Assembly (NCBI RefSeq): GCF_003334355.1 | Contig: NZ_QOWP01000005.1 | Length of the DNA stretch: 64,000 bases | Strand: one strand, 5' to 3' | Origin: Escherichia coli | GTDB taxonomy: Bacteria > Pseudomonadota > Gammaproteobacteria > Enterobacterales > Enterobacteriaceae | Shown: piece after piece, positions 29,496-31,165 of the stretch | Position numbering within the stretch: position 1 is the stretch's first letter | Layout: each line of letters starts with the position of its first letter | Notes under the pieces: generated by a model | Database searches by the model: none | What the model saw: only the letters and a program-made list of their open reading frames with translations | What the model was told of the DNA's origin: nothing | Made by a program: the position numbers and the translations under genes

Positions 29496-30923
29496 TTATT
29501 TCGTGTTTTTCGACGACGGTAATTCAATGCGGAAACAAACGTCTTGCCCGCTCTCGTCGACCAGATACAGTTCCCCTTGCATACGGCGAATACAATCCCT
29601 GGCAATGCTTAATCCCAGACCGCTGCCCTTCACCGCCCCTTTTCGCTGGTGGCTTCCCTGAAAAAAGGGTTCGAAGATCATGGCGCGTTCTTCTTGCGGA
29701 ATGGGCGTGCCTGTATTGATGACATCAATATAAACCCGCGCACCATGTAAACTGCTGCGAAGGCAAATGTTACCGGATTCAGCCCCGTAGTGCACCGCAT
29801 TGGAGTAAAGATTATCCAGTACGCTCATCAGCAGCATTGGCTCCGCCAGGCAAGCTGTTGCTTTGAGATCGACGTCGGTATGCATCATTTTAGCCCGTGC
29901 GGGCAGGCTATGAGCAGAAACCACTGTCTCCACCAGCGGTGCTAATTCAACATTCTCCAGTTCCACCGCACTGTCCGCCTGTTTACGGTTGTAATCAAGC
30001 AGTTGTTCGATCAGTTTTTGCAAATTGCGGCTGCTGCTATCAAGAATGCTCACCACCTCTTTTTGCTCTGGCGTAAGCGGCCCGACAACCTGATCAGCCA
30101 GTAATTCAGTGCCCTCGCGCATACTCGCCAGTGGCGTTTTTAATTCATGAGATAAATGTCTTAAAAATTGATGGCGTTGGGATTCCAGCCATGACAGGCG
30201 CTCACTTAACCAAAGAATACGTTGCCCAACCGAGCGTAACTCGCTCGGTCCACTGAACGAAACGCTATTGCCCAGAGAACGCCCTTCCCCCAGACGGTTG
30301 ATCATGCGCTCGATATTTTTCACCGGCCCGATAATCATCCGCGTGAAAAGTAGCACCATCACCAGACTCACCAGAAATAGCACCAGCGATTGCCAACCAA
30401 AATATTGCCCACGTTCGGCGATTTCACGCTGAAGTTGCTGCCCACGAGAGAACACCACTGTGCGCGTGGCCTGCACCATTTCGGTATTGGCACTGGCAAA
30501 GGCTTCAAGACGCGCGGCGGCGGCAGCATCGGGACCACTGTTGTTACACTGAAGTTGGGCCAGATTGTTCAAATCCTGACGCAATGCCTGGTAAAGTTTA
30601 TCGTCTGGCAGTACGCCTGCGTGGGCATCGAGCATTTCGCTGTAACGCTTGCGCTGGCTTTGATAAACCTTCGCAAGCGTAGGGTCGTCCAGCACGCAAT
30701 ACTGACGGTAGCTACGCTCCATCTCCAGCGCCGCGTTGGTCATCGCTTCACTACGCCGGGCATCAATAAGCGTAGTGCGGTTAACCAGCGCCGCCTGATC
30801 GCTAAGCGCATTCAGGCTTTGCCAGGCTTGCCATGCCAGCACCAACAGGGGTAGTAGAATTAGCAAAAATGCCAGCATTACCAGTTGTCGTAATGAGCGG
30901 GGAAAAACGGGACAGCGTTTCAA
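29496..30923 (-). CDS. glrK: Sensor histidine kinase GlrK/QseE (475 aa, TTG start)
   Basis: ORF 29496..30986; the first ATG lies inside the glmY terminator, so start placed at in-frame TTG (30921-30923) giving (M)KRCPVFPRS; HAMP and HisKA/HATPase motifs. Confidence 0.85.
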   Translation of the reverse strand: MKRCPVFPRSLRQLVMLAFLLILLPLLVLAWQAWQSLNALSDQAALVNRTTLIDARRSEAMTNAALEMERSYRQYCVLDDPTLAKVYQSQRKRYSEMLDAHAGVLPDDKLYQALRQDLNNLAQLQCNNSGPDAAAAARLEAFASANTEMVQATRTVVFSRGQQLQREIAERGQYFGWQSLVLFLVSLVMVLLFTRMIIGPVKNIERMINRLGEGRSLGNSVSFSGPSELRSVGQRILWLSERLSWLESQRHQFLRHLSHELKTPLASMREGTELLADQVVGPLTPEQKEVVSILDSSSRNLQKLIEQLLDYNRKQADSAVELENVELAPLVETVVSAHSLPARAKMMHTDVDLKATACLAEPMLLMSVLDNLYSNAVHYGAESGNICLRSSLHGARVYIDVINTGTPIPQEERAMIFEPFFQGSHQRKGAVKGSGLGLSIARDCIRRMQGELYLVDESGQDVCFRIELPSSKNTK

Positions 30924-30981
30924 GGTGTTACTCTCGTCAGACGCGAATAGCCTGATGCTAACCGAGGGGAAGTTCAGATAC

Positions 30982-31165
30982 AACAAAGCCGGGAATTACC
31001 CGGCTTTGTTATGGAATAAGGCGGTGCCTAACTCGACGTTTCGCCCGATGGTTGATATAGCTACGCTGATATCAGAAGTTGGACGGCAGGCACCTTGTTG
31101 TGCGTCATTCGAATTTTATGTAGCACGTCCCGAAGGGGCTGACATAAGTCGGTGAATGAGCCACT
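30982..31165 (-). ncRNA. glmY: Small regulatory RNA GlmY (about 184 nt)
   Basis: Reverse complement from 31165 reads AGTGGCTCATTCACCGACTTATGTCAGCCCCTTCGGGACG..., ending in terminator hairpin aaagccgggtaattcccggcttt plus U-run; immediately upstream of glrK. Confidence 0.9.

Follow-up and report, generated by a model that had tools for sequence, protein, structure and literature searches.

Six genes in the window, a 64 000 nt stretch of Escherichia coli chromosome, begin at TTG or GTG codons, and it is very probable that they are ordinary E. coli genes, the true UUG or GUG initiation codons of which lie inside longer stop-to-stop frames. In order to place the starts, curated K-12 CDS starts (NC_000913.3 / U00096.3) were mapped onto the window, which aligned with 99.2 % identity to K-12 MG1655 around 2.66–2.72 Mb. 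All five non-ATG starts proposed in the original prediction (glrK, mltF, tadA, eamB and yfiM) coincided with the mapped curated starts, whilst a sixth, the TTG of pgpC, was missing from that list (Table 1). Positions and codons are identical to those of the MG1655 annotation (b2556 glrK, b2558 mltF, b2559 tadA, b2560 pgpC, b2578 eamB and b2586 yfiM), although the window derives from a different strain, in which GlrK carries a single substitution (W4C at 30912). PGAP likewise gives qseE/glrK, mltF, tadA and yfhB/pgpC the same lengths in AR_0369, the closest genome.

Each proposed start is supported because curated annotation, conservation of a start-capable codon across genera or published initiation-site data agree with it. 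Additionally, the NCBIfam equivalog profiles of MltF, PgpC, EamB, TadA and YfiM begin at annotated residue 1, annotation and profiles being partly interdependent as evidence. Orthologues were compared across about 80 species of Enterobacteriaceae, with the scan of the genome collection covering glrK and its 10-kb flanks. The overall interpretation is supported with only minor details in error, and the non-ATG starts of these genes are already known from the curated K-12 record, RefSeq and published start-site mapping. For glrK, mltF, pgpC and eamB, no direct initiation-site or N-terminal peptide data were found in the literature, retapamulin-profiling supplements lying outside the search, and the TRAINSPOTTER N-terminomics supplements contained no mention of any of the six genes.

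Table 1. Location, strand and basis of the features discussed (window positions)
Feature	Position	Strand	Basis
glrK (qseE) CDS, TTG start, 475 codons + stop	29496..30923	-	K-12 b2556 mapped; PGAP qseE same length
glrK TTG start codon	30921..30923	-	Conserved column in 79 species
glrK 'extension', non-coding, 21 codons (5' UTR, promoter, glmY terminator tail)	30924..30986	-	In-frame stops
Weak SD-like GAGAG, 7 nt upstream of glrK TTG	30931..30935	-	gagag or gagac in most loci
Expected qseEGF transcription start	30948	-	Inferred from published −25 (PMC6075780)
Probable −10 hexamer TAGCAT, sigma70 qseEGF promoter	30955..30960	-	Conservation; PMC6075780
Candidate −35 TTGTAT, 17-nt spacer; overlaps second upstream TTG and glmY terminator T-tract	30978..30983	-	Read from sequence
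glmY small RNA, full length including terminator	30982..31165	-	K-12 b4441 mapped
Predicted AU-rich hairpin, nearly invariant, 44 nt, enclosing mltF weak SD and UUG start	35628..35671	+	Conservation; predicted fold
mltF CDS, TTG start 35644-35646	35644..37200	+	TTG in 70/70 loci
tadA CDS, TTG start 37700-37698	37197..37700	-	Orthologues; ribosome profiling; N-terminal peptide; recoding phenotype
tadA Shine-Dalgarno GGAG	37709..37712	-	−6.1 kcal/mol; kept in almost all loci
Perfect −10-type hexamer TATAAT upstream of tadA; last two bases and next G form the rejected ATG (37733-37731)	37732..37737	-	
pgpC (yfhB) CDS, TTG start 38393-38391	37758..38393	-	K-12 annotation; orthologues
eamB CDS, GTG start 55266-55268; SD GAGGAG 55253-55258	55266..55853	+	
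yfiM first 10 codons, TTG start 63971-63973; SD GGAGG 63959-63963	63971..64000	+	

Overextension of mechanical ORFs

The ORF list supplied with the sequence was too long for many genes because each of its entries opens with whichever of ATG, GTG or TTG first follows a stop codon. All 15 genes that had been named as upstream in-frame extensions had entries longer than the curated CDS, the excess in codons being 8 for iscS, 31 for hcaR, 24 for yphA, 11 for yphC, 2 for glyA, 7 for hmp, 34 for glrR, 5 for pdxJ, 12 for rseA, 11 for rpoE, 40 for yfiC, 15 for yfiE, 6 for grcA, 25 for yfiF and 17 for yfiP/tapT. Further cases absent from that list were yfhR, csiE, yphG, yphH, qseG, yfhH, yfhL, shoB and pssA.

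The glrK start and the glmY–glrK junction

The predicted TTG of glrK matches both the K-12 and PGAP annotations. Across 79 species codon 1 was TTG in 74 and GTG in five, and among codons 1–20 it alone was start-capable in all 79, whilst in the same loci the Leu codons at positions 11, 14 and 20 were each represented by three to five synonymous codons. A start-capable codon is thus conserved where internal codons for the same amino acid drift freely. The mechanical ORF (29496–30986) exceeds the curated CDS by 21 codons. Within this extension an in-frame stop was present in 41 of the 79 species, in 28 of which no other start codon lies between the stop and the glrK start; as such, the extension is not conserved as coding sequence. 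It had been expected to overlap the glmY terminator and to open with an ATG: the overlap holds, but the frame above the glrK TTG contains no ATG, and the extension opens instead with two TTGs (30986 and 30983), which overlap the glmY 3' end and have a TAA four codons above them.

The GAGAG motif preceding the glrK TTG has a duplex energy of −3.4 kcal/mol, within the range of random positions (no better than the top quartile). Shine–Dalgarno strength was considered as an argument for the glrK start and dropped, as −3.4 kcal/mol at the TTG versus −3.9 kcal/mol upstream does not discriminate between the candidates. No NCBIfam model spans the N-terminus of GlrK/QseE, the best matches being other histidine kinases aligned from residue 110 onward, and QseE is described as undetectable in global proteomics in PMC6075780.

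The argument from the glmY terminator was right in substance, and is strengthened because a conserved −10 element and a transcription start published at 25 bp before the qseE TTG place the 5' end of the mRNA between the alternative starts and the TTG. PMC6075780 reports this transcription start, locates a sigma70 qseEGF promoter directly after glmY (citing Reichenbach et al., 2009) and describes read-through from glmY into qseE as virtually absent. In the genomes compared, a TAnnnT pattern at −37 to −32 was kept in 78 of 79 species, lying 30–33 nt from the start codon in 77, and the conserved hexamer sits between the glmY terminator and the glrK TTG. This is the site given for the promoter in that paper, and TAGCAT would stand 6 nt upstream of the reported transcription start. 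From the sequence, the −35 and −10 hexamers of Table 1 probably constitute the qseEGF promoter. In a consensus promoter and terminator scan of 30850–31300, both the qseEGF promoter and the glmY terminator went uncalled, the promoter because its hexamers match at 8 of 12 positions, which is below threshold. The small RNA itself was matched by the Rfam model GlmY_tke1 at 31018–31165 (147 bits).

Read in this way, the 63 nt from the start of the mechanical ORF to the TTG are non-coding and would comprise the U-tract of the glmY terminator, then the −35 and −10 elements, then a 5' UTR of roughly 25 nt carrying the weak GAGAG Shine–Dalgarno. As the glrK mRNA begins downstream of the upstream TTGs, the ribosome can use only the TTG at 30923.

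The tadA start

For tadA, the TTG had been described as backed by a Shine–Dalgarno sequence and the in-frame ATG upstream (37733) as having none; the duplex energies bear this out (−6.1 kcal/mol for the TTG versus +0.2 kcal/mol for the ATG), and the TTG is the curated K-12 start. Codon 1 was TTG in 54 and GTG in 12 of 66 loci. The initiating-ribosome peak, the N-terminal peptide and the genetic requirement for this codon all come from the literature. In tetracycline ribosome profiling the TTG collected 47/57/30 reads and the upstream ATG 0/0/0, and an N-terminal peptide was found for the TTG start (PMC4909307); the 2014 record has tadA and yfiM starting at TTGs, a change consistent with that profiling (PMC4909307). 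In Ec_Syn57 the tadA TTG was accidentally recoded, with a resulting doubling time of 429 min that fell to 44.9 min once the TTG was restored (PMC13287592). This design error in a 57-codon genome involved tadA itself, with the TTG and the mis-annotated upstream ATG discussed here, and amounts to genetic proof of the TTG, although the study was carried out with a synthetic genome and strain MDS42 rather than the strain of the window.

The rejected ATG is embedded in a TATAAT hexamer, which occurs in 62 of 62 loci and in 61 is placed 29–32 nt from the start codon, whereas just 25 have the ATG in the tadA frame with no stop before the start. On conservation and position, TATAAT is a candidate promoter element. 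A consensus promoter scan of 37600–37900 did not call a tadA promoter. An extended −10 reading of the motif TGTGTATAAT was rejected, since TATAAT is preceded by GTG and the TG misses the required register by one base.

The pgpC, eamB and yfiM starts

The pgpC start was TTG in 56 loci and GTG in three; in a further six the extrapolated start column was displaced by an N-terminal indel, and four of these have a TTG one codon upstream. A stop lies two codons upstream of the pgpC start in most loci, and the Shine–Dalgarno energy is −8.6 kcal/mol. For eamB, the predicted GTG is the curated K-12 start, and extension is impossible because a TAA stands two codons upstream; the Shine–Dalgarno energy is −9.1 kcal/mol at the GTG versus +0.6 kcal/mol at the next ATG (codon 18), and the NCBIfam EamB equivalog aligns from 1–195 to residues 1–195. 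For both genes, upstream sequence, start codon and a profile beginning at residue 1 agree, eamB being judged within the window and by its profile.

The yfiM gene does start with TTG, as predicted, but the coordinate given for it (63973) is the last base of the codon and not its first. Its Shine–Dalgarno energy is −9.3 kcal/mol. The start was re-annotated to this TTG from tetracycline ribosome profiling, in which the reads were weak (0/16.7/2.3; PMC4909307), and the resulting N-terminus, MRILFVCSLLLLSGC, is a signal peptide with a lipobox, of the lipoprotein type ending LSGC. The NCBIfam 'YfiM family lipoprotein' profile likewise starts at the TTG-encoded residue; an initiation signal thus coincides with a biologically sensible N-terminus.

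The mltF start and a predicted hairpin around it

The predicted TTG of mltF is again the curated K-12 start. All 70 loci have TTG at codon 1, most with a stop codon (usually TAA) directly upstream in frame, leaving no upstream start, and the NCBIfam MltF equivalog aligns from profile position 1–481 to residues 1–481. The Shine–Dalgarno match is weak (−2.9 kcal/mol, no better than the top quartile of random positions). A literature search on the mltF start codon found nothing relevant.

Identity at third codon positions of mltF is 0.95 over codons 2–9, compared with 0.67–0.71 further downstream, and the start block folds as a single hairpin with a predicted stability of −6.9 kcal/mol at 37 °C. 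In the alignment, 92.7 % of cells are paired, four pairs change on both sides and the level is reached by two of 500 shuffles, figures that come from related sequences with little variation and from a structure derived from one of them. No Rfam family matched at the hairpin.

It is conceivable, though we consider it unlikely, that this hairpin is an undescribed translational control element and, more broadly, that the run of TTG starts in glrK, mltF, tadA and pgpC reflects shared tuning at the level of the start codon rather than chance. Such an mltF element might act as a gate sensitive to structure or temperature, or as a site at which a protein or small RNA binds; if real, it would limit the synthesis of a potentially lytic enzyme.

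Alternative starts

Two isoforms might exist for some genes, with a minor longer form made from rare read-through or upstream-promoter transcripts beside the main TTG form. A setting for this exists at tadA: 57 nt separate it from pgpC, upstream on the same strand, and any transcript spanning both genes would include the ATG at 37733; rare glmY–glrK read-through is likewise possible. However, neither the glrK nor the tadA extension is conserved as coding sequence, the ribosome-profiling signal at the tadA ATG is zero (PMC4909307) and PMC6075780 reports next to no read-through into qseE; we regard this arrangement as very unlikely.

More improbable still is initiation of glrK at its first in-frame ATG, codon 16 (30878–30876), with the TTG as an upstream artefact. 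Codon 16 is the sole ATG near the 5' end of glrK and is ATG in 61 of 79 species, but in 17 of the 79 Met16 is lost (ACG, ACA, ATC, ATT or GTT), and the codon has no Shine–Dalgarno (+0.4 kcal/mol). Moreover, the protein sequence of GlrK residues 1–15 (KRWPVFPRSLRQLV) is retained while its codons drift synonymously, and a start at codon 16 would drop the positively charged segment preceding the first membrane helix.

Little credence can be given to translation of glrK from the TTG at 30986 or 30983, which would use the full mechanical ORF and yield 496 or 495 residues. The E. coli frame is open from 30986, both TTGs are kept in many Escherichia and Citrobacter loci and an SD-like energy of −3.9 kcal/mol precedes them; against this, the G-rich 'SD' belongs to the terminator stem, the terminator tail of glmY and the candidate −35 element cover the TTGs themselves, which precede the transcription start given in PMC6075780, and over half of the species (41 of 79) interrupt the frame.

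Finally, translation of tadA from the ATG at 37733 to give 178 residues, in frame and open in E. coli and the annotated start in U00096.2 (PMC4909307), has a negligible probability, being already refuted by the published reads, peptide and recoding phenotype, and running counter to its missing Shine–Dalgarno and its restricted occurrence as an open frame.

Relation to canonical initiation and significance

TTG and GTG starts within longer frames thus remain the preferred reading for all six genes, which have the standard near-cognate starts of canonical E. coli UUG and GUG initiation, decoded by fMet-tRNA. A normal Shine–Dalgarno at 6–8 nt spacing accompanies four of the six. AUG, GUG and UUG start 83 %, 14 % and 3 % of E. 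coli genes, respectively, and UUG and GUG initiate at 10–100 % of AUG (10.1101/063800). Compared with this usage, the window holds five TTG and one GTG starts among 64 coding sequences, with TTG in four of five neighbouring coding sequences, which may be chance. In tadA, pgpC, eamB and yfiM the weak start codon is combined with a strong Shine–Dalgarno, whilst in mltF and glrK both the codon and the Shine–Dalgarno are weak. A UUG start lowers initiation relative to AUG, which fits the low abundance of these proteins (sensor kinase, lytic transglycosylase, tRNA deaminase and phosphatase), and we infer that it serves to keep expression low. A likeness may be seen to the AUU of infC, subject to autoregulation by IF3, in that a weak initiation codon is conserved across genera.

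The main lesson is that stop-to-stop ORF lists overshoot real genes, and no new biology arises from the starts themselves. Nevertheless, the choice of start decides the signal peptide in mltF and yfiM, the determinants of membrane topology in glrK and eamB, and the presence of a spurious N-terminal tail in tadA. It also matters in practice: a recoded E. coli genome came close to being lost when its tadA TTG was taken for an internal Leu codon (PMC13287592).

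Annotated start codons

Alignment placed the window on E. coli K-12 MG1655 at ∼2,660,000–2,724,000 (99.2 % identity across 61.8 kb), and a 4 kb probe around the glrK (qseE) ORF was found in 5,426/5,426 complete E. coli genomes. Curated K-12 CDS starts were transferred to window coordinates, recording for each its start codon, the preceding 25 nt and all in-frame ATG, GTG or TTG codons back to the preceding stop. The original prediction had proposed non-ATG starts for glrK, mltF, tadA, eamB and yfiM, and all five match the curated sites; for yfiM the TTG was right, but the position given, 63973, is that codon's last base. 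PGAP annotation of the nearest genome had equal gene lengths for the four genes covered. Additionally, 15 entries of the mechanical ORF list (reading frames opened at the first ATG, GTG or TTG after a stop) had been described as upstream in-frame extensions, and 15/15 are indeed longer than the curated record, by 2–40 codons. Absent from the prediction were the TTG start of pgpC (yfhB) and about nine further extension cases; overshoots of this class (codons in excess of the curated gene) are yfhR 9, csiE 7, yphG 31, yphH 2, qseG 2, yfhH 24, yfhL 8, shoB 6, pssA 1 and yfiM 7.

Start sites and other elements mapped in the window
Feature	Position	Strand	Basis
glrK start	TTG 30923–30921	−	Curated K-12; 21 codons inside ORF 29496–30986
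mltF start	TTG 35644	+	Curated K-12
tadA start	TTG 37700–37698	−	Curated K-12; in-frame ATG at 37733, 11 codons upstream
eamB start	GTG 55266	+	Curated K-12
yfiM start	TTG 63971–63973	+	Curated K-12
pgpC (yfhB)	CDS 37758–38393; TTG start 38393–38391	−	Strong SD
glmY	30982–31165		K-12 mapping; Rfam match 31018–31165
−10 hexamer TAGCAT and candidate −35 TTGTAT	30955–30983	−	Between glmY terminator and glrK
AsrC (antisense to rseC)	46849–47680	+	Rfam gathering-level match
rncO	43852–44066	−	Rfam gathering-level match
iscRS stability element	1320–1429	−	Rfam gathering-level match
ohsC	40363–40439	+	Rfam gathering-level match
ES036	54147–54189	−	Rfam gathering-level match

The start of glrK

The minus-strand ORF containing glrK comprises 496 codons, as originally described. 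Its 63 nt upstream of the TTG had been taken as the only ATG extension, overlapping the glmY terminator; the overlap is real, but the extension contains no ATG and opens with TTG-TTG (30986 and 30983) after a TAA. Species comparison and the curated K-12 site both place the start at the TTG proposed. A one-genome-per-species scan gave 80 Enterobacteriaceae loci with 10 kb flanks, in 79 of which the glrK 5′ end was usable; at the codon aligned with the E. coli TTG, 74 of these carry TTG and five carry GTG, and among codon positions 1–20 this one alone is start-capable in 79/79 species. As the ordinary leucine codons 11, 14 and 20 each vary between three and five synonymous codons at these loci, this invariance reflects constraint on a start codon rather than on leucine. 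The 21-codon extension is broken by an in-frame stop in 41/79 species, whilst the first ATG (codon 16) is a non-start codon in 16 of the 79 and GTG in one more. No choice between the candidate starts follows from the SD match, which is weak (GAGAG, −3.4 kcal/mol).

The 63 nt contain the glmY terminator tail, the hexamer TAGCAT and a short leader. TAGCAT lies at −37 to −32 of glrK, and its promoter-critical positions (TAnnnT) are kept in 78/79 species at a near-fixed distance; the candidate −35 element TTGTAT shares bases with the terminator T-tract and one spurious upstream TTG. qseEGF is transcribed from a σ70 promoter directly downstream of glmY, with virtually no glmY read-through (Göpel and Görke, PMC6075780), and we infer that the two hexamers together match this promoter. 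The TTGs at 30986 and 30983, the remaining alternative starts, fall within the candidate −35 element and the terminator tail; since the published transcription start, 25 bp upstream of the glrK start codon, is downstream of them, they are absent from the glrK mRNA.

The codon for GlrK residue 4 (30912, minus strand) is Cys (TGT) in the window strain and Trp (TGG) in K-12, AR_0369 and other Escherichia loci, the sole K-12 difference in 100 nt around the start. The glrR start (28628, minus strand) is displaced by one codon between genera, being CTG-ATG or ATA-ATG in Escherichia and a few Citrobacter, and ATG-ATA or ATG-ACA in most genera.

tadA and pgpC

The SD-backed TTG proposed for tadA is borne out by a start column of TTG (54 loci) and GTG (12 loci) with conserved GGAG, and by published tetracycline ribosome profiling, with 47/57/30 reads at the TTG and an N-terminal peptide on record that fits this start (PMC4909307, Table S2). 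The competing upstream ATG (37733) received 0/0/0 reads in the same dataset, and just 25/62 loci have it in frame with an open path to the start; its A and T close a perfect TATAAT hexamer (37731–37737 region, minus strand), and its G is the next base. This hexamer, ∼30 nt upstream of the TTG, is kept in 62/62 loci and may function as a promoter, judging from its sequence. In a 57-codon genome, mistaken recoding of the tadA TTG gave a doubling time of 429 min, and restoring the start codon gave 44.9 min (PMC13287592). For pgpC, the start column is TTG in 56 orthologous loci and GTG in three, and in most loci a stop precedes it by two codons.

mltF, eamB and yfiM

The predicted TTG of mltF is the curated start and is TTG in 70/70 loci, usually with a stop (mostly TAA) immediately upstream in frame. 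The surrounding block GCAGAGAATTAACTAA-TTG-AAAAAATTAAAGATTAATTATCTG (35628–35671, plus strand) is near-invariant in nucleotide sequence, synonymous sites included, among 68 Enterobacteriaceae loci; third-position identity is 0.95 over codons 2–9, compared with ∼0.69 further downstream and ∼0.61 at codons 2–9 of tadA and pgpC. It is predicted to fold into a single AU-rich hairpin, which includes the weak SD and carries the UUG at the stem top; the predicted stability at 37 °C is −6.9 kcal/mol. Across the alignment, pairing holds in 92.7 % of cells and both sides are changed in four pairs, above nearly all shuffles, although these counts come from scarce variation among related sequences and a structure derived from one of them; covariation lends the hairpin modest, suggestive support. 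The Rfam search of the window gave no family match at this position.

The GTG predicted for eamB likewise agrees with the curated start. It is preceded by a strong SD (−9.1 kcal/mol) and, at a distance of two codons, by TAA; codon 18, the next ATG, lacks an SD. The yfiM start was shifted to the TTG in the 2014 record, in agreement with ribosome-profiling reads, which are weak, and gives the protein a lipoprotein signal peptide with LSGC at its end. Immediately before its SD, GGAGG, lie the hairpin and T-tract of the pssA terminator (63930–63973 region, plus strand). The alternative TTG at 63950 falls inside that T-tract, mirroring the spurious upstream TTG of the glmY/glrK layout. In MltF, PgpC, EamB, TadA and YfiM alike, the start of the NCBIfam equivalog profile coincides with the start of the annotated protein, and the tested extensions remain outside the alignment.

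Other features and start-codon usage

The AsrC, rncO, iscRS element, ohsC and ES036 matches are unrelated to the start sites. Relative to K-12, the window carries an 18 bp REP-like insertion, AATGCCGGATGCGGCGTA, between glmY and purL (31442–31459), and extra or repeated intergenic sequence between iscS, iscR and trmJ (1430–1558 and 2224–2408), where Rfam places naRNA4.

UUG and GUG are standard minor E. coli start codons, used by 3 and 14 % of genes (10.1101/063800). The 64 coding sequences of the window include five TTG starts and only one GTG, and TTG opens four of five consecutive coding sequences (29496–38393: glrK, mltF, tadA and pgpC, the exception being purL). Against the genome-wide frequencies this gives P∼0.04 for the TTG excess and ∼7 × 10−4 for the GTG deficit, uncorrected and for one window among many; we regard it as a curiosity.

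The start-site observation is confirmed and the interpretation placed on it supported. All of these assignments are correct and already known, being present in the curated K-12 record and RefSeq, and those of glrK and tadA rest additionally on published experiments.
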